Source: a plasmid
Assembly (NCBI RefSeq): GCF_055900595.2
Contig: NZ_JBVWEU010000004.1
Length of the DNA stretch: 41,714 bases
Direction: 5' to 3' (one strand)
The notes under the pieces were generated by a model. The model had not been told where the DNA came from. It saw only the letters and a program-made list of their open reading frames with translations, and ran no database searches. The translations under genes and the position numbers were made by a program. Positions 1,338 through 37,461 of this stretch are shown here, one piece after another. Position 1 is the first letter of the stretch, and each line of letters begins with the position of its first letter.

Positions 1338-1681
1338 GGATGGAAAACTCTTCTTGTGCTGAGCGTAAGAGCTATCTGCCGGAACGGTTCCTCTTCGCTT
1401 CCTCGCCAGTTCGCTCGCTACGCTCGGTTACATGGCTGCGGCGAGCGCTGATACATAAGGCTCAGCATTGCACTGGTCGTAACTAAAATCAGAATCCTTC
1501 TGAATGACTCTCCTGTCTTGCAAGTTGAATACCTTTCTCAAAGCCCTTTTGTATGAGTTGCTGTTGATGGTCAAAAGTGCGTCTGCGTGTTGCTGCAGTG
1601 TGATTTAGTAGCACGCCCGTCGAGCTTCATCCCCCTTCTGTTGAGAGCGAAATCAAAACAATATGATTTTTTTTCTTGCAA

Positions 1682-1719
1682 CATGACACTTTTTGTTCAA
1701 AATGACAAAAAACGTCATG
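1682..1719. promoter_or_regulatory. 38-bp imperfect palindrome just upstream of parA; candidate autoregulatory operator
   Basis: CATGACACTTTTTGTTCAAAATGACAAAAAACGTCATG is close to its own reverse complement and ends 10 bp before the parA ATG. Confidence 0.4.
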
Positions 1720-1728
1720 AGGTGATAA

Positions 1729-2934
1729 ATGGACAATATTGAGCAGTTACGGAAAGTCGCTACACGTGCAGGTAAGCTTCTGACATCTTTGAGCGAAAGT
1801 ATCCGACAGCAAAAAGAGGAATTGAAGCTTACCGAGTTCTATCAGGAATACAGCAAAGCCGCTCTGTATAAGCTGCCTAAGCTCAGTAAAGGCAGTGTTG
1901 AGTATGCTGTGTCCGAAATGGAAGCCGGTGGCTACATTTTTAAAAAGAAACCTTCTGGTAATACGATGAAATACGCGATGACGATTCAGAATGTCATCGA
2001 TCTGTATAACCATCGTAAAGTACCGAAGTACAGGGATCGCTTCGATAAAGCCTTTACGATTTTTGTATGTAATCTTAAAGGTGGTGGTTCCAAGACAGTT
2101 TCTACCGCTTCATTATCACATGCTTTTCGAGCTCATCCTCAGCTTCTGTTCGAAGACCTGCGTATTCTGGCCATCGATTTCGATCCGCAGGCATCTCTGA
2201 CAATGTTCCTGAGCCATGAGAATTCAGTGGGCTTGGTTGAAAATACGGCTGCTCAGGCCATGCTCCAGAACGTGTCTCGTGAAGAATTACTTTCCGATTT
2301 TATAGTACCGTCTATTATCCCTGGTGTTGATGTAATCCCCGCTTCCATTGACGATGCATTCCTTGCTGAAGGCTGGAAGGGATTGTGTGAAGAACATCTG
2401 CCAGGGAAAAATATTCATGCGGTGCTTAAAGAGAACATTATCGACAAGCTCCAGCATGACTACGACTTTATTTTCCTTGATAGTGGTCCTCACCTTGATG
2501 CGTTCCTGAAAAACTGCATTGGGGCGGCAGACCTGATGTTGACCCCTCTTCCACCGGCGACGGTTGATTTTCATTCTTCCCTGAAGTTTGTGGCCAGCCT
2601 CCCTGCCCTCATAGATTCCATCGAAATGGATGGGCACACCTGCAATCTCATCGGTAATGTCGGCTTCATGTCCAAGATCCTGAACAAGTCTGATCACAAA
2701 ATTTGCCATAGTCAGGCCAAAGAGGTTTTCGGTGCCGATATGCTAGACATGGTTCTGCCAAGACTGGATGGTTTCGAACGTTGTGGGGAGACTTTTGACA
2801 CAGTTATTTCAGCAAATCCAGCAACCTATGATGGAAGTACAGAGGCACTAAAAAGCGCAAAATCAGCAGCGGAAGACTTTGCGAAGGCAGTCTTTGATCG
2901 CATCGAGTTCATTCGTACTAACGGAGGTATGTGA
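1729..2934 (+). CDS. parA: Type Ia partition ATPase ParA (P1 ParA / F SopA family)
   Basis: 401 aa; deviant Walker A KGGGSKT; long N-terminal extension typical of type Ia ParA; overlaps parB by 4 bp. Confidence 0.9.
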   Translation: MDNIEQLRKVATRAGKLLTSLSESIRQQKEELKLTEFYQEYSKAALYKLPKLSKGSVEYAVSEMEAGGYIFKKKPSGNTMKYAMTIQNVIDLYNHRKVPKYRDRFDKAFTIFVCNLKGGGSKTVSTASLSHAFRAHPQLLFEDLRILAIDFDPQASLTMFLSHENSVGLVENTAAQAMLQNVSREELLSDFIVPSIIPGVDVIPASIDDAFLAEGWKGLCEEHLPGKNIHAVLKENIIDKLQHDYDFIFLDSGPHLDAFLKNCIGAADLMLTPLPPATVDFHSSLKFVASLPALIDSIEMDGHTCNLIGNVGFMSKILNKSDHKICHSQAKEVFGADMLDMVLPRLDGFERCGETFDTVISANPATYDGSTEALKSAKSAAEDFAKAVFDRIEFIRTNGGM

Positions 2935-3908
2935 TGTCGAATGAGAAAAGAAAAACCATCGGCAGACAGTTAAATACCCAGGCGTCAATTGCGGAAATGA
3001 CGGACACCGGTAGAAGCCAGGTATTTACCTTAAAAACCGGCAGGAAGGTAACGTTCAGGTTTGTTCGGGTGCCTGCATCTGAAGTTGAAAGTAAGACCTT
3101 CGTAAACCAGGAAAACAACGGAAGAGATCAACTTGCACTGACCAGGGAATCCCTGAAATCCATTATCCAGACGATTAAGTTTCAGCAGTTCTTTCCCTGT
3201 ATTGGTATTAAGCAAAGTGAAAGGATTGAGATACTGGATGGTTCAAGACGGCGAGCCTCAGCAATTTTTGTCCGTACAGGCCTTGATGTAATGGTTACCG
3301 AAGAGCATTTATCAGCTGATGAAGCTCGCCAACTGGCTAAAGATATCCAGACAGCTAAAGAACATAATCTTCGGGAGATTGGCCTGAGATTGATCGCTCT
3401 TAAAGAGTCCGGATTTAATCAAAAGGAAATTGCTGAACTGGAGGGGTTATCTCAAGCTAAAGTTACCAGGGCGCTGCAGGCGGCGGCCGTACCGCAAGAC
3501 TTGATTTCTCTGTTCCCGGTTCAGTCGGAGCTATCGTTTAGTGACTATAAACTTCTTTTAGAAGTTAATGAAAAACTCAGTGAAAAGGGATTAACGCCTG
3601 AAGAACTCATTCAGTCTGTATCAGCTCAGCTCGATGCAATTTTGAGTGAAGGCGAGCGACCAGAAGACGAACAGAAAGCCAGTATACTGAAGCTGATTTC
3701 TCAGGCATCTCAGGCATTGATAGATCCATCTCCCAAGGAAAAGTCAGTGGTTTCCCCACTCTGGTCTTTTGAAGAAAAGGACAAGTTCGCGCGTAAGCGT
3801 GTGAAAGGGCGTACGCTGACTTATGAGTTTAGCCGTATGTCAAAAGTGATTCAGGATGAACTGGACAAGGCTATCAACGAGGTCCTTGACAGAAATTTGA
3901 GTCAATAA
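2931..3908 (+). CDS. parB: Partition centromere-binding protein ParB
   Basis: 325 aa; GSRR motif (ILDGSRRRAS) characteristic of ParB/SopB; translationally coupled to parA. Confidence 0.85.
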   Translation: MMSNEKRKTIGRQLNTQASIAEMTDTGRSQVFTLKTGRKVTFRFVRVPASEVESKTFVNQENNGRDQLALTRESLKSIIQTIKFQQFFPCIGIKQSERIEILDGSRRRASAIFVRTGLDVMVTEEHLSADEARQLAKDIQTAKEHNLREIGLRLIALKESGFNQKEIAELEGLSQAKVTRALQAAAVPQDLISLFPVQSELSFSDYKLLLEVNEKLSEKGLTPEELIQSVSAQLDAILSEGERPEDEQKASILKLISQASQALIDPSPKEKSVVSPLWSFEEKDKFARKRVKGRTLTYEFSRMSKVIQDELDKAINEVLDRNLSQ

Positions 3909-5716: not shown

Positions 5717-5734
5717 ACTGGTTATACATACAGT
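5717..5734. promoter_or_regulatory. LexA (SOS) box upstream of umuD
   Basis: ACTGGTTATACATACAGT contains CTG-N10-CAG matching the CTGT-N8-ACAG consensus, 25 bp upstream of the umuD start. Confidence 0.6.
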
Positions 5735-5739
5735 GCTCA

Positions 5740-7680
5740 CCGGGAGACCGGTAGAGATCAAGGGGTGAAAGTCCCCGACCATTGAAGGACCAGCAATCCA
5801 CAAGGTCCCCGAGTCATGCGTTGCATACCGCGAGGTATGGGGCGAAGCGTTGACAGGGGTGTTGACAGGCCAGCCATTGAGCCACGAAATGTATATTAAA
5901 TTACCGGGTGCCGACGTTGTACTGTTAACGGAAGGCAACATCATAGGGTGCGATACTGCGAGTGCCACATGGACCCGGCGGGGTCTGAGACCCTGGCATG
6001 TCAATACGATCTCTACGCGGGAACCGGGAGATCTCCCCTCTGACCATCTGCCAGTGTCGGAGACGGCCCGCACCGGGAAGACGAGGAGTCATAGCCGGTG
6101 ATGTACGGAGAGGAGAAGTCGGACTCGCTCATAGTAGCGGCGAAGCAGGCGAACAACCCGAAAGGAGCGGAGTCAGTGGAGCGAAGGAGCGGGGCCAAGG
6201 GGAACGCGGAACAGCCACACATGCGCCGGACACAGAGCCGGGAAAGCATGTCACAGAGGCTGTCACGCGTGCGGGAAGCTGCGAAGCAGCGGAAGAAAGA
6301 ACGGTTTACAGCATTGTTCCACCTGCTGACAGTCGAAGCACTGGAAGCCGCATTCCTCTCCCTGAGCAGGAAAGCGGCCGCCGGAGTGGATGGCATCAGG
6401 TGGATGGACTACGCCGGAAACATGAAGAACAACATAACAGATCTGCACCGGAGGCTACATTAGGGCAGCTACAGGGCGCAGCCCGGCAGGCGTCACTACA
6501 TCCCAAAAGCGGATGGAAAACAACGCCCGCTCGGCATCGCCTCGCTGGAGGACAAGATCGTCCAGTATGCGCTGGTGAAAATCCTGAACGCAGTCTATGA
6601 AAACGACTTTATGGGGTTCTCATACGGGTTCAGACCCGGGCGAAGCCAGCACGATGCACTGGACGCACTGGCCACAGGGCTGGTACGCACTAACGTAAAC
6701 TGGGTACTGGATGCCGACATCAGTCAGTTCTTCGACAGGGTGAGCCACGAATGGCTGATCAGGTTCACAGAGCATCGGATCGGCGACCGGAGCGTAATCA
6801 GGCTCATACGTAAGTGGCTCACAGCCGGGACGTTGGAGGAGGGTCAATGGCGAGCAACGGAGGAAGGCACCCCACAGGGTGCGGTCATCTCACCGCTGCT
6901 GGCAAACATATACCTCCACTACGTCTTCGATCTGTGGGCGCATCAGTGGCGACGTCGCTATGCCACAGGCAATGTGGTAATGGTCAGATACGCCGATGAC
7001 ATCGTCATCGGGTTCGACAAACGATACGATGCCCGGCGCTTCCGTATAGCCATGCAGCGCAGACTGAGGGAGTTCGGACTCACGGTTCACCCGGAGAAAA
7101 CCCGTCTGATGGAGTTCGGCCGCTTCGCTGCCGAAAACCGTGCCATCAGGGGAAAAGGCAAACCAGAAACGTTCAACTTCCTCGGGTTCACGCACATCAG
7201 CGGGAAAGATCGCAACGGCAGGTTCATGCTGATACGAAAGACCCGCCGGGATCGGATGACGGCAACTCTGAAAGCCATCAAAGACGGTCTGCGAAGGCGC
7301 TGGCATTACTCAATCCCCGAACAGGGAAAATGGCTCAGGAGAGTGGTTCAGGGATACCTGAACTATCACTCGGTACCGGGCAACTTCCCCACCATGCAGA
7401 AGTTCAGGACACACGTAACAAACCTCTGGCGCCGGGCGCTCAGGCGCAGGAGCCAGAAGGATGATACGACCTGGACGAAAGCAAACAAACTGGCAGCCGC
7501 ATGGCTACCAAGGGTTCGGGTTCTTCATCCATGGCCTGTGGAGCGGTTCACCGCCAGACACCCGAGGCAGGAGCCCGGTGCGTAAATCGCGCACGCCGGG
7601 ATCTGTGCGGGGGGTATCCGGTAACGGGTATCCCTACCGCGACATATTTAACAGCGTGACGATAATCCAGATCGCCTGCC
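5740..7680 (+). mobile_element. Group II intron remnant (maturase-encoding; 5' RNA domains probably truncated, 3' end abuts IS1)
   Basis: Reverse transcriptase/maturase ORF with structured GC-rich RNA-like sequence on both sides; only about 360 nt lie between the LexA box and the ORF start, less than a typical domain I-III. Confidence 0.6.
6098..7588 (+). pseudogene. Group II intron reverse transcriptase/maturase interrupted by an in-frame TAG at 6464-6466
   Basis: ORFs 6098-6463 and 6575-7585 are in the same frame; translation across the gap reads ...[38 protein letters not shown]..., i.e. one stop codon inside a contiguous RT domain; YADD motif present downstream. Confidence 0.75.
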
Positions 7681-27730: not shown

Positions 27731-27874
27731 GGCTTGTTATGACTGTTTTTTTGTACAGTCTATGCCTCGGGCATCCAAGCAGCAAGCGCGTTACGCCGTG
27801 GGTCGATGTTTGATGTTATGGAGCAGCAACGATGTTACGCAGCAGGGCAGACGCCCTAAAACAAAGTTAGCCAT

Positions 27875-28372
27875 ATGAACTCGGAATCAGTACGCATTTA
27901 TCTCGTTGCTGCGATGGGAGCCAATCGGGTTATTGGCAATGGTCCTAATATCCCCTGGAAAATTCCGGGTGAGCAGAAGATTTTTCGCAGACTCACTGAG
28001 GGAAAAGTCGTTGTCATGGGGCGAAAGACCTTTGAGTCTATCGGCAAGCCTCTACCGAACCGTCACACATTGGTAATCTCACGCCAAGCTAACTACCGCG
28101 CCACTGGCTGCGTAGTTGTTTCAACGCTGTCGCACGCTATCGCTTTGGCATCCGAACTCGGCAATGAACTCTACGTCGCGGGCGGAGCTGAGATATACAC
28201 TCTGGCACTACCTCACGCCCACGGCGTGTTTCTATCTGAGGTACATCAAACCTTCGAGGGTGACGCCTTCTTCCCAATGCTCAACGAAACAGAATTCGAG
28301 CTTGTCTCAACCGAAACCATTCAAGCTGTAATTCCGTACACCCACTCCGTTTATGCGCGTCGAAACGGCTAA
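27875..28372 (+). CDS. dfrA12: Trimethoprim-resistant dihydrofolate reductase, dfrA12-like
   Basis: 165 aa, MNSESVRIYLVAAMGANRVIGNGPNIPWKIPGEQ; first cassette after attI1. Confidence 0.9.
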   Translation: MNSESVRIYLVAAMGANRVIGNGPNIPWKIPGEQKIFRRLTEGKVVVMGRKTFESIGKPLPNRHTLVISRQANYRATGCVVVSTLSHAIALASELGNELYVAGGAEIYTLALPHAHGVFLSEVHQTFEGDAFFPMLNETEFELVSTETIQAVIPYTHSVYARRNG

Positions 28373-33804: not shown

Positions 33805-34064
33805 TCAGTCCACTTGCGGTTTCATTGTTACTTTGTCATAGCGTCGTGTCAGAATGCGGCAGAGAACAGCGTTTACTATCAACGCAACACCAGACCAGAA
33901 AAACCATGTATTAACACCTATAACCTCAACAACCGGACCTGCAACAAGTAAGCCTATCGGCATAGAAAGAGTCATGGCGGTCATCAAAAGGGAAAACACC
34001 TTGCCCATCATTTCAGGGGCAATGCTTTCTTGAACATAAGCCATAACAGGAACATTCATAAATG
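33805..34064 (-). pseudogene. mef(B): C-terminal fragment of an MFS efflux transporter, probably truncated mef(B), cut by IS26
   Basis: About 85 codons of transmembrane C-terminus ending at the IS26 inverted repeat. Confidence 0.6.
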
Positions 34065-34884
34065 GGCACTGTTGCAAAGTTAGCGATGAGGCAGCCTTTT
34101 GTCTTATTCAAAGGCCTTACATTTCAAAAACTCTGCTTACCAGGCGCATTTCGCCCAGGGGATCACCATAATAAAATGCTGAGGCCTGGCCTTTGCGTAG
34201 TGCACGCATCACCTCAATACCTTTGATGGTGGCGTAAGCCGTCTTCATGGATTTAAATCCCAGCGTGGCGCCGATTATCCGTTTCAGTTTGCCATGATCG
34301 CATTCAATCACGTTGTTCCGGTACTTAATCTGTCGGTGTTCAACGTCAGACGGGCACCGGCCTTCGCGTTTGAGCAGAGCAAGCGCGCGACCATAGGCGG
34401 GCGCTTTATCCGTGTTGATGAATCGCGGGATCTGCCACTTCTTCACGTTGTTGAGGATTTTACCCAGAAACCGGTATGCAGCTTTGCTGTTACGACGGGA
34501 GGAGAGATAAAAATCGACAGTGCGGCCCCGGCTGTCGACGGCCCGGTACAGATACGCCCAGCGGCCATTGACCTTCACGTAGGTTTCATCCATGTGCCAC
34601 GGGCAAAGATCGGAAGGGTTACGCCAGTACCAGCGCAGCCGTTTTTCCATTTCAGGCGCATAACGCTGAACCCAGCGGTAAATCGTGGAGTGATCGACAT
34701 TCACTCCGCGTTCAGCCAGCATCTCCTGCAGCTCACGGTAACTGATGCCGTATTTGCAGTACCAGCGTACGGCCCACAGAATGATGTCACGCTGAAAATG
34801 CCGGCCTTTGAATGGGTTCATGTGCAGCTCCATCAGCAAAAGGGGATGATAAGTTTATCACCACCGACTATTTGCAACAGTGCC
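34065..34884 (-). mobile_element. IS26 (820 bp)
   Basis: 14-bp terminal inverted repeats GGCACTGTTGCAAA; no 8-bp target duplication. Confidence 0.95.
34117..34821 (-). CDS. tnpA: IS26 transposase Tnp26
   Basis: 234 aa from MNPFKGRHFQRDIILWAVRWYCKYGISYRE. Confidence 0.95.
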   Translation of the reverse strand: MNPFKGRHFQRDIILWAVRWYCKYGISYRELQEMLAERGVNVDHSTIYRWVQRYAPEMEKRLRWYWRNPSDLCPWHMDETYVKVNGRWAYLYRAVDSRGRTVDFYLSSRRNSKAAYRFLGKILNNVKKWQIPRFINTDKAPAYGRALALLKREGRCPSDVEHRQIKYRNNVIECDHGKLKRIIGATLGFKSMKTAYATIKGIEVMRALRKGQASAFYYGDPLGEMRLVSRVFEM

Positions 34885-35916
34885 ATAACGACTGCGTTTG
34901 CGAATGATCCTGTGCCCCAGAAAGATAAAGCCGTCATTAACATGGGTGATTTTAGTCTTATCCATGTTCAGCCTGAGTTTCAGACTGCCTTCGAGCACAC
35001 CCCGACACTCCTCCCTGATGGCTTCCGCCTGTGCTTTGGTGCCTTTGACGATGGGGACAAAATCATCGGCATAGCGGCAGTACGCCACCGCGGGTTTCCA
35101 CTGCCAGTTTTCTCTGACCGCCGTACTTCGGCCCCGTTGGATACTGTTATTCCAGTACCACCGATCTTTTCTGGCTTTCCCGCTCAGGTAGCGCTCATGC
35201 AGGTATTGATCGAACTCATTCAGCATGATGTTCGATAATAGCGGCGATATAACACCGCCCTGTGGCACACCTTCACTGGCCGCCCGAAAGAGACCGACAT
35301 CGATATGTCCCGCCTTGATGGTTTTCCACAGCAGAGTCATGAAACGTGCGTCACTGATCCTGCGGCGTACAGCCTTCATCAGCAGTCGATGATGTACGGT
35401 GTCGAAGTAACTGGACAGGTCGCCTTCAATCACCCAGCGTCCCCGGGTTTCACCGCAGTCTGTGAGCTGTAATTTCACCGTGCGGATCGCGTGGTGGACA
35501 CTGCGCTCAGGCCGGAAGCCATATGAGAGCGTATGAAAATCACTCTCCCATATCGGCTCCATCGCCATCAGCATGGCCCGCTGAACAATACGATCCCGCA
35601 ACGCGGGGATACCCAGTGGTCGCAGTTTGCCGTTGCTTTTAGGGATGTAAACCCGTCTGGCGGGCAAGGGCTGGTAGTGGCCTGAGAGTAATTCATCCCT
35701 GAGGATTTGCAGCTCAACAGCCAGTCTGGCCTGTAGCATTGTTTTGTTCACGCCATCAACGCCGGGGGTATGCGCCCCCTTTGATGAAAGCGTGATCCGC
35801 GCCGCTTCAGCCAGCCATTCTGGTTGTGTTATCAGACGCAGCAGCCGTTGAATCCGTAGGGACGGATCGGTGGCTGCCCATGTGGCAAGCTTGCGTTGCA
35901 TTTCGCTGATTATCAA
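34885..35916 (-). pseudogene. Group II intron reverse transcriptase/maturase, C-terminally truncated by IS26
   Basis: RT domains 0-7 with YADD motif (CRYADDFV); the frame runs into the IS26 end. Confidence 0.8.
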
Positions 35917-36572
35917 AGGTCTTCACCTCGTTAGGTCAGTTAATTCACGTCGCAAACACATTCAAACTGCTTCCCTTCGCCATGTAATGGGCTTTCCCCA
36001 TCGCGGACTACTACGGAAGCTCCGCCAGCCAGCGCGTCATCGGAGCCATGCCCCCTTAACATCCGTCGCTGACCTTCCCCGGTTTACCTGCCTGGACTCA
36101 GGCATACTGAGGAGGCTGCCCGTCGCACTCTTTATCCTTGCTTGCCGCAAGTTGGCAGAAGTCAGCAACGCAAGCGTGATAGACGCTGCTGCCCCGGTGT
36201 TTCGCATACATGTCAAAACACCTTCGACCGGCAGTGCTTACGTATCACTGCCAGTTCCTCCTGCACGGCCTGTCAGATCACGTAGGCCGTGGTGACGTTT
36301 TCAACCCACAGAGGCGGATTAACGGGTTCATGTTCTTCAGCCTTTCAGTACTTAACCTTGAGGATCATCTCGGCTTAGTGATCTCGCCTCAATCCCCGTT
36401 GTCAGCGGGTTACATCACCCTGCGGGCATGCCGCAGGTCACTGCCGCTCAGGTTCTCCACCGTCACACCCGGTGGGATTGTTGGGTTTCTCATCGTGAGT
36501 TACCGGTTCAATATTCCAGACAGACTCGCGGTTCATTTAAGCATCCATGCCCGCCCTGAACTCCGGGCACAC
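34885..36572 (-). mobile_element. Group II intron, 5' end intact (GUGUG), 3' part removed by IS26
   Basis: Minus-strand sequence begins GTGTGCCCGGAG exactly where IS3-family orfB homology stops; about 656 nt of structured RNA, then the maturase ORF; ends abruptly at the IS26 IR. Confidence 0.7.
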
Positions 36573-36927
36573 TGTAGGTGATGTCGGTGACCCACACCTG
36601 ATTGGGCTTCACTACAGTAAATTCACGCCGCACGTGATTAGGCGCTATCAGTGACGGTCGTCCCCGGCTCCCGCGTGGCACTTTATAACCATGTATAGCC
36701 TGAATCCTGTTTTTCCTCATGATTTTGGCAACCCGGTTTCTGCTGCACACTTCGCCAATTTCGCGAAGATCGCCATGAACCCTGCGATAACCGTAAACTC
36801 CACCACTCAGCGTATAGGAGTCGCGGATGAGTTCCAGCAGTCGCTGGTTATCCTTTTCTCCGGCAGATACAGGGTTATGGAGCCAGACATAAAATCCGGC
36901 ACGGGCAACCTTAAGGACCCGACACAT
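36573..36927 (-). pseudogene. IS3-family transposase OrfB N-terminal fragment interrupted by group II intron insertion
   Basis: Frame matches IS3-family OrfB up to ...VWVTDITY, then reads into intron sequence. Confidence 0.75.
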
Positions 36928-36974
36928 TGTAACGATCGACCAGATTTCACGGTGATCGTTGATAAAGCGATACT

Positions 36975-37259
36975 TCAGTCGGGCTCCCTTGCAAAGTACC
37001 GCGCTGCCTTTTTCAGAATATCCCGCTCTTCCTCAGTGCGTTTAAGCTGTGCTTTCAGCCTGAGAATTTCTGTTCTGGCATCCAGTAAATCCTGTGCCTG
37101 CTGTCCACTGTTGTCAGGCTTAACAGCCCGGAGCCATTTATATAGGCTGTGCGCCGACACGCCGAGCCGTTCAGATACTTCAGCAATAGAATAGCCCCGC
37201 TCGGTGATCTGGCGGACGGCCTCTTCCTTAAATTCAGGGGTAAAACGTGATGTGCCCAT
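36975..37259 (-). CDS. IS3-family transposase OrfA (HTH)
   Basis: 94 aa, MGTSRFTPEFKEEAVRQITERGYSIAEVSERLGVS. Confidence 0.85.
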   Translation of the reverse strand: MGTSRFTPEFKEEAVRQITERGYSIAEVSERLGVSAHSLYKWLRAVKPDNSGQQAQDLLDARTEILRLKAQLKRTEEERDILKKAARYFAREPD

Positions 37260-37278
37260 AGACTCCTCCTATGCTCAA

Positions 37279-37358
37279 ACTATAGGGCAGATTTGTCTAC
37301 GGGCTCGGGGTCACTCCAACTATAGGGCAGATTTGTCTACGGGCTCGGGGTCACTCCA
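37279..37358. repeat. Perfect 40-bp tandem duplication between the IS3-family IR and orfA
   Basis: ACTATAGGGCAGATTTGTCTACGGGCTCGGGGTCACTCCA occurs twice back-to-back (37279-37318, 37319-37358). Confidence 0.9.
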
Positions 37359-37399
37359 TTAAGTGATAACAGGTGTCTGGAAATATAGGGGCAAATCCA

Positions 37400-37461
37400 G
37401 TCGGGAGGATGCGTGATCTGATCCTTCAACTCAGCAAAAGTTCGATTTATTCAACAAAGCC
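37400..37461 (-). mobile_element. IS903-family left-end fragment (62 bp), inverted relative to 11717-11981
   Basis: Reverse complement matches the first 62 bp of the IS903 copy, with one mismatch. Confidence 0.75.

Follow-up and report, generated by a model that had tools for sequence, protein, structure and literature searches.

Within the plasmid stretch of 41,714 nucleotides analysed here, which we call the window, a nest of mobile elements lies next to the vapBC module on a multiresistance plasmid of the IncR type. It consists of five layers (IS903B, IS2, ISEc15, E.c.I4 and IS26) and is read on the minus strand throughout, which holds for all coordinates of ISEc15, E.c.I4 and IS26 given below. 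The features that the text refers to, as assigned from sequence comparison, are the following.

37400-37461, minus strand: terminal fragment of IS903B (IRL end), 62 bp, the outermost layer, 95-100% identical to annotated IS903B ends
37359-37399, minus strand: terminal remnant of IS2 (orfB-proximal end, IRR), 41 bp, 97-100% identical to IS2 ends
37319-37358, minus strand: additional tandem copy of the first 40 bp of the ISEc15-family IRL, equal to 37318-37279
36573-37318, minus strand: 5′ 746 nt of an ISEc15-family (IS3 family) element, comprising the IRL (TGGAGTGACCCC...), orfA and the N-terminal part of orfB
36975-37259, minus strand: orfA of the ISEc15-family IS, 94 aa, HTH_Tnp_1 (Pfam PF01527, E = 1.3e-18)
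36573-36927, minus strand: N-terminal fragment of orfB, HTH_21 only (Pfam PF13276, E = 3.9e-16), broken at the DDE Asp motif
34885-36572, minus strand: E.c.I4 group II intron, the 5′ 1,688 nt out of 2,270 nt
34885-35901, minus strand: shortened ORF of the intron-encoded protein, with the RT domain whole (RVT_1, E = 9e-34)
34065-34884, minus strand: IS26, 820 bp, with tnp26 at 34117-34821, 14-bp inverted repeats and DDE_Tnp_IS240 (E = 2.4e-48)
5733/5735-7643, plus strand: Kl.pn.I5, Rfam D1D4-6 match, 1,910 nt

From the vapBC side, the order is vapBC, the 62-bp IS903B end, the 41-bp IS2 end and then ISEc15. The IS903B end has its match in locus L014 at the terminus of the IS, immediately upstream of the transposase start, and the match of the IS2 remnant in L013 is the orfB-proximal terminus of an IS2-type element. 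An earlier note on this DNA, made from the letters alone, had described three nested elements; all three elements and their order hold, and it is the count of layers, five, that changes. The note had also set the boundary of the IS3-family element at 37399. This position is instead the tip of the 41-bp IS2 remnant, and the left end of the IS lies at 37358/37318. The additional 40-bp copy of the IRL is absent from L001, L017, L019 and L020 and occurs in 3 E. coli records (H93-H95) among the matches listed; it appears to be specific to the lineage of the window. Antisense open reading frames of 123-314 aa also run across the region. They gave zero Pfam matches, and we regard them as non-coding.

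The host of the intron can be placed in the IS3 family as an ISEc15-family element, having an orfA with a helix-turn-helix domain and an orfB for a transposase with a DDE (rve) core. Its 746-nt part in the window shows 1 mismatch to the intact 1,230-bp element of p1658/97, the ends of which (TGGAGTGACC...GGTCACTCCA) display the TG...CA terminal inverted repeats and the length of which lies within the range of about 1.2-1.5 kb for the family; the window keeps the left end only. A relative of the ISEc24 family, in which PGAP annotates a programmed frameshift, begins at the same TGGAGTG. The orfB frame of the window reads ...KPNQVWVTDITY, with TAC at 36576-36574 and then one exon base, A36573, and the 746-nt part accordingly ends after ...VTDITY plus 1 nt, which is the 5′ exon of the intron. 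A Pfam search of the orfB fragment (36573-36927) for an rve/DDE core found none and returned HTH_21 alone, and PGAP labels the fragment 'IS3-like element ISEc15 family transposase, missing C-terminus'. The rve domain (E = 3e-28) appears only once the 2,270-nt intron is removed in silico. The spliced orfB is then a complete IS3 transposase in frame, scoring ~301 bits (301.5) against NF033516, for which the cut-off is 160. With native exons it reads ...VTDITY followed directly by IRTWQGWLYLAVVIDLF, the ligated ISEc15 exon junction being ...ATCACCTACA joined to TCCGCACC, and splicing in silico yields exactly the sequence of the empty-site alleles described below.

The intron is opened by G36572, GTGTGCCCGGAG, and its start sequence is GTGTGCCCGG. 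The GTGTG at 36572-36568 on the minus strand is the conserved GUGYG 5′ end, and the same junction was found at seven other loci; the division between exon and intron at 36573 and 36572 had been drawn exactly in the earlier note. Full-length copies of 2,270 nt are present in many plasmids and chromosomes. Compared with these, the window copy retains the 5′ GUGUG, ribozyme domains I to IVa and 339/502 codons, and it is without the last 582 nt, which hold the X/maturase domain and domains IVb to VI. The intact intron-encoded protein of 502 aa has RVT_1 at 86-332 and GIIM at 356-421 and reaches 341 bits with TIGR04416 (cut-off 300). Only residues 1-339 are found in the window protein, in which RVT_1 is kept and GIIM is lost, and the ORF extends 7 codons into the IS26 inverted repeat. 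The protein has one substitution, L283P, beside YADD, and PGAP labels the ORF 'reverse transcriptase domain-containing protein, missing C-terminus'.

The 1,688 intron nt differ from full-length copies at 3-5 positions and from the copies in IS911- and IS629-type elements at 4-5 positions, and over the shared ~2,430 nt the full-length alleles likewise show 3-5 differences to the window. Intron nt 1-1,764 are 99.2% identical to the E. coli K-12 ykfC locus over exactly 1,764 nt. In published data on E.c.I4, MG1655 has an entry 'E.c.I4-tr1' in prophage CP4-6, given as a 'fragment of 1764 bp' with a class A ORF (PMC3522654, Table S2), and full-length E.c.I4 is about 2,271 bp (PMC3522654); the class A ORF of E.c.I4 is without an endonuclease region (PMC3552965). 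Together with the 4-5 differences, the ykfC match and these two reports identify the intron as E.c.I4, a bacterial class A intron with no endonuclease domain.

In L001, an intact IncR allele, the intron closes with a canonical D5/D6 (Rfam RF00029, 64.9 bits; gathering score, 40). Through its full-length alleles, in which the 5′ end, D5/D6 and the RT and X domains are all found, the window copy can be assigned as a fragment of a group II intron. A contrary reading, in which orfB has diverged beyond ...DITY or gives way there to unrelated DNA, could draw on the Rfam group II models, which gave zero matches in 34700-36800 at the gathering threshold and even at E = 1. This is because D5/D6 are deleted and the D1-D4 models miss this class A intron; as these models miss the 5′ part of the intron, the retained ribozyme fold rests on identity to the full-length copies. 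Against that reading, the first 700 nt are identical to the intron in L001 and in L008, which has a different host IS, and these copies end in the canonical D5/D6 (shown for L001) and encode an RT/maturase. In addition, native orfB continues differently in the empty-site alleles, with TCCGCACCTGG..., so that we consider this reading virtually certain to be wrong. The earlier claim of a group II intron inside an IS3-family orfB is thereby upheld: the full-length copies end in D5/D6, splicing restores orfB, and the sequence after DITY, for which an alignment to orfB had been named as the refuting outcome, aligns to intron copies instead.

The loci compared for the insertion point were the window, L001 (ISEc15-family), L005 and L010 (IS911-type 5′ exon), L006 and L007 (IS629-type 5′ exon), L008, L009, L012 and IS1133. 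In every one of them the intron sits one base into the codon immediately downstream of the Tyr in W-x-x-D-(I/V/F)-T-Y. This codon is the one occupied in each of at least six distinct orfB genes of the IS3 family, with IS911-, IS629-, ISEc24-like, IS1133 and other orfBs among the hosts that share the insertion point, and the earlier suggestion that the insertion might correspond to a conserved transposase motif is thus confirmed. We take the motif Asp in W-x-x-D-x-T-Y to be the first residue of the DDE catalytic triad. A single, specific insertion position for E.c.I4 in the transposase genes of the IS3 family has been reported previously (PMC3522654).

The first 700 intron nt carry 0-2 differences in seven of eight copies, with 20 in L009, and a near-invariant intron across such hosts indicates that one recognition surface is used on many related targets. 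A candidate EBS1, UGUGGGU at intron positions 263-269, pairs at 34/35 positions with the five exon variants, compared to 26 for the next best site, and candidates for EBS2 were ambiguous in the same exon-pairing search. In the minimum-energy fold of domains I-IV, the EBS1 and EBS2 candidates are both buried in helices, and no covariation was found at the candidate EBS positions in the eight intron copies, where these positions are invariant. From the known behaviour of group II introns, we infer that base pairing between exon and intron is part of the homing mechanism. The polymorphism between empty and occupied sites may be taken as an indirect sign of past homing.

Empty, occupied and cut alleles all exist in the vapBC context. 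An intact, intron-less 1,230-bp ISEc15 is present in the identical vapBC-IS903B-IS2 context in p1658/97, and a probe for the empty site matched 425 PLSDB records. In plasmid NZ_CP024857.1 of E. coli AR_0011, ISEc15 in the same context carries E.c.I4 between its native exons, and a probe for the junction of the intron with the native 3′ exon matched 331 PLSDB records. The contiguous IS26-intron junction was found in one of 72,556 PLSDB plasmids, E. coli D6 plasmid A. Since this allele series lies in a shared vapBC context, the order of IS, then intron, then IS26 that the earlier note had put forward is directly supported.

The simplest reading of these alleles is that the intron would have invaded ISEc15 in situ. 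Alternatively, ISEc15 could have arrived at the site already carrying the intron, in which case 'IS first, then intron' would not be true of this locus. E.c.I4 is common in IS3-family copies, with a match in 2,869/5,426 E. coli genomes, and an intron-bearing IS could in principle move by splicing or with a transposase acting in trans. However, the intron-less ISEc15 of p1658/97 is intact in the identical context, with its 1 mismatch in 746 nt, and the site is empty in the 425 PLSDB records, which makes a pre-loaded IS very unlikely.

Locus L001 (p607-1) is a rearranged allele in which the 3′ exon is IS1133 orfB and not the native exon. The window has 3 differences to L001 and 5 to L019, and its direct predecessor may have been rearranged as L001 is, with a 3′ exon from IS1133. 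No exact match to the chimeric spliced junction derived from L001 was found in genome contigs, because the 3′ exon of L001 is IS1133 orfB. A query made with this IS1133 3′ exon had given the reading that no intron-less ISEc15 exists, which is ruled out by L017 and by the 425 empty-site records.

The element at 34065-34884 shows the features of IS26 (IS6 family), namely a length of 820 bp, 14-bp inverted repeats and a Tnp26 transposase (275.6 bits with profile NF033587), and can be assigned to it. The 14-bp repeat GGCACTGTTGCAAA lies at 34884-34871 and again at 34065-34078, and this 820-bp copy is the only IS26 in the window (chance expectation of the 14-bp repeat, 0.04 matches). Identity to uncut introns reaches 34882, and GGC is common to the intron and the IS26 inverted repeat; the junction is therefore placed at 34884/34885 with 3 bp of ambiguity. 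The cut comes after intron nt 1,688 of 2,270. The earlier note had placed it at 34884/34885, inside the maturase; the junction is correct, and the X/maturase domain proper lies wholly beyond the cut, which comes after the RT domain.

On the side away from the intron, IS26 abuts a mef(B) remnant that belongs to a sul3-type class 1 integron, a junction that is old and widespread, with at least 606 records carrying it. An 8-bp target duplication was sought at the IS26 flanks and none was found (CATAAATG versus ATAACGAC). Intramolecular transposition of IS26 in cis is known to delete adjacent DNA without a target duplication (PMC4471558), and flanks that differ are what cointegrate or deletion products should show. 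Given that there is no duplication and that IS26 was already joined to mef(B), the 'cut by IS26' of the earlier note is to be understood as replicative transposition or deletion; the truncation of the intron by IS26 stands, and a simple insertion does not.

The most economical reading, and the most likely one, is that a single intramolecular replicative transposition in cis into the intron would have produced this arrangement. The alternative is that there was no such one-step event and that an ordinary IS26 insertion was followed by IS26-IS26 recombination or deletion, or that a cointegrate lost one IS26. The absent target duplication is compatible with both routes; related plasmids are rich in IS26, which matches at many places in each record, and in several records a copy lies a few hundred bp or less from intron fragments. 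On the other hand, the reciprocal junction expected from a plain insertion (IS26, then GTCGTTAT and the rest of the intron) is present in no PLSDB record, and the window has only one IS26. We therefore regard the two-step or cointegrate route as a tenable possibility that is less probable than not, and we retain the one-step event as the preferred reading.

Overall, with a probability of about 0.92, the locus is a dead five-layer nest that arose in the order ISEc15, then E.c.I4, then an IS26 already joined to the mef(B) remnant. In the history that we propose, an ISEc15-family element adjoining the short IS903B and IS2 end remnants would have been entered in its orfB by E.c.I4. By analogy with known group II introns, the intron RNA-protein particle would have recognised the sense-strand DNA for W-x-x-D-x-T-Y via exon-binding-site pairing, reverse splicing would have split the codon downstream of Tyr after its first base, and the reverse transcriptase would have copied the intron into DNA. 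Priming was probably from replication-fork DNA, as the intron protein is without an endonuclease domain. While intact, the intron could have been spliced from the transposase mRNA, and in-silico exon ligation restores the full DDE transposase. IS26, attached to the mef(B) remnant, would then have attacked the intron ORF, most likely by intramolecular replicative transposition in cis, and this event would have deleted the last 582 nt of the intron, the rest of ISEc15 and whatever lay beyond.

The remnant is predicted to be without function now, unable to splice, home or transpose, because the intron is without its catalytic core and maturase domain and the IS is without its DDE core and right end. 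The ORF fragments are pseudogenes, and PGAP marks them likewise on the identical stretch. It could be argued that the two independent E.c.I4 remnants, both cut between the RT and maturase domains (at nt 1,688 here and at nt 1,764 in ykfC), are not accidents and that the RT-only protein was retained because it serves some separate function, as a domesticated reverse transcriptase. The two cuts do lie within 76 nt of each other in a 2,270-nt element, which has a chance of roughly 7%; we nevertheless consider such a function extremely improbable.

In comparison with known systems, the window copy is the same element as E.c.I4 of Escherichia and Shigella, a class A intron that is about 99% identical to S.f.I1, and it shares the length of 2,270 nt in its full form, the 502-aa protein, the lack of an endonuclease domain and the specific IS3-family site (PMC3522654, PMC3552965). 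It differs in that it is truncated at the 3′ end and in that its host is of the ISEc15 family; IS1133 is a host on related plasmids. The targets given for E.c.I4 are IS629, IS911, ISEc16 and ISEc31, with neither ISEc15 nor IS1133 among them (PMC3522654).

The closest parallel to the truncation is ykfC of K-12 (E.c.I4-tr1 in prophage CP4-6), where E.c.I4 occupies this motif in IS911 orfB, the junction reading ...CGDVTY plus 1 nt and then GTGTG. There too the intron is truncated past the RT domain, at nt 1,764 as against 1,688 in the window, IS5 adjoins the end of the intron, and the host IS is broken by IS30. The ykfC copy differs in being chromosomal, in having IS911 as its host and in having IS5 instead of IS26 as its neighbour.

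The plasmid has one more group II intron, Kl.pn.I5, which was first recorded on the IncR plasmid pK245 and is also inactivated here. In contrast to the E.c.I4 copy, it is intergenic, downstream of umuD, and not inside an IS, and it lost its activity through point mutations, whereas the E.c.I4 copy was truncated. RmInt1 in ISRm2011-2 of Sinorhizobium meliloti is another example of an endonuclease-less intron that homes into the transposase gene of an insertion sequence, although it belongs to a different intron class (D) and differs from E.c.I4 in host IS family and bacterial lineage. The intron described in the literature on FII-33 (F33:A-:B-) plasmids was considered as possibly the same intron and was rejected, being a different intron at a different site.

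Nested structures of this kind are already known and documented, and E.c.I4 in an IS3-family transposase gene is ordinary; the value of the finding is mainly practical and lies in annotation, in a lineage marker and in chronology. The public annotation of the identical stretch in E. coli D6 plasmid A gives only three pseudogenes that seem unconnected, namely a fragment of an IS3 transposase, a 'reverse transcriptase domain protein' and IS26; an ISEc15::E.c.I4 cut by IS26 accounts for all three. The IS26-intron junction, present in one of the 72,556 PLSDB plasmids, is for that reason a marker of a specific lineage, and the empty, occupied and truncated alleles offer a relative chronology for IncR-type backbones. 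A retroelement gains many targets when the nucleotide sequence to which it homes encodes a catalytic motif common to a whole IS family, a principle that has already been published for E.c.I4.

The ends of the window (positions 1 and 41714) are contiguous in plasmid A of E. coli D6, at L002 13017/13018, and for this reason the window looks like a complete circular IncR-type plasmid of about 41.7 kb. The features outside the ISEc15 region are as follows.

1-867: repB
about 955-1336: repeats spaced 72 bp
5733-7643, plus strand: second group II intron of the window, downstream of umuD
about 7678: IS1, after this intron
27820-27898: AAC_AAD_leader/attI, Rfam match, part of the sul3-type integron
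33805-34064, minus strand, and upstream to about 28750: sul3-type class 1 integron joined to IS26

The integron carries a truncated mef(B), sul3, qacL, aadA1, cmlA1, aadA and dfrA12, with intI1. The second intron shares 99.5% identity with Kl.pn.I5 of pKPN3, and scores 186.6 bits against Rfam D1D4-6. Its first 7 nt read GTGCTCA rather than GTGTGCG, there is a 1-nt deletion close to this altered 5' end, and the intron-encoded protein is interrupted by a premature stop (C6461T, changing Gln122 to a stop codon). Because of these three changes, the window copy of Kl.pn.I5 looks inactivated.

The left end of the ISEc15-family element, the host of the class A intron E.c.I4, directly abuts a stack of insertion sequence (IS) remnants.

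37279-37358, minus strand: left inverted repeat of the ISEc15-family element, duplicated in tandem as two perfect 40-bp copies (TGGAGTGACCCCGAGCCCGTAGACAAATCTGCCCTATAGT twice)
37359-37461, minus strand: stacked remnants of two ISs, the terminal 62 bp of IS903B followed by the right end of IS2 (exactly 41 bp)

A simple nesting of ISEc15 inside IS2 was ruled out, since the right flank of the intact copy in p1658/97 is not IS2. Transposition targeted to inverted repeats is a candidate explanation for the insertion of ISEc15 beside the inverted repeat of an IS3-family element. The duplication was not found in the compared copies (p1658/97 and the loci L001, L017 and L019), and only three E. coli records among the matches listed have it. 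Replication slippage seems its most likely origin, as the ISEc15 element was already dead.

ISEc15 is not the only host of E.c.I4. IS1133 is also occupied, with the junction between the IS1133 5' exon and the intron present in 75 PLSDB records, and the exons flanking the intron do not always match.

L001 (p607-1, NZ_CP155773.1) 3030-3421, L017 6319-6709 and NZ_CP024857.1: related-plasmid loci compared for the ISEc15 and IS1133 exons of E.c.I4
L005 (NZ_CP026580.3, E. coli chromosome) 1477-3852: E.c.I4 copy with a chimeric exon pair
L016 (Paenochrobactrum gallinarii, NZ_JACIIU010000074.1) 1-317: IS1133 orfB segment

The last of these comes from an alphaproteobacterial assembly, where it lies on a contig of 1.9 kb; it is cut by an IS66-like element and is 100% identical to the enterobacterial plasmid copy over 222 nt. 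Either IS1133 has spread horizontally or the segment is a contaminant. In L005, the 5' exon is identical to K-12 and putatively IS911-type, and the 3' exon is putatively IS629-type, to judge by their protein sequences; the 5' junction is common to many genomes.

On some related plasmids, E.c.I4 lies between the ISEc15 5' exon and the IS1133 (Tn5393) 3' exon and the strAB segment is inverted compared to the intron-less arrangement, and some single plasmids have both ISEc15 and IS1133 occupied by the intron. Taken together, the mixed exons, the strAB inversion and the doubly occupied plasmids suggest that recombination between two E.c.I4 copies is a cause of plasmid rearrangement.
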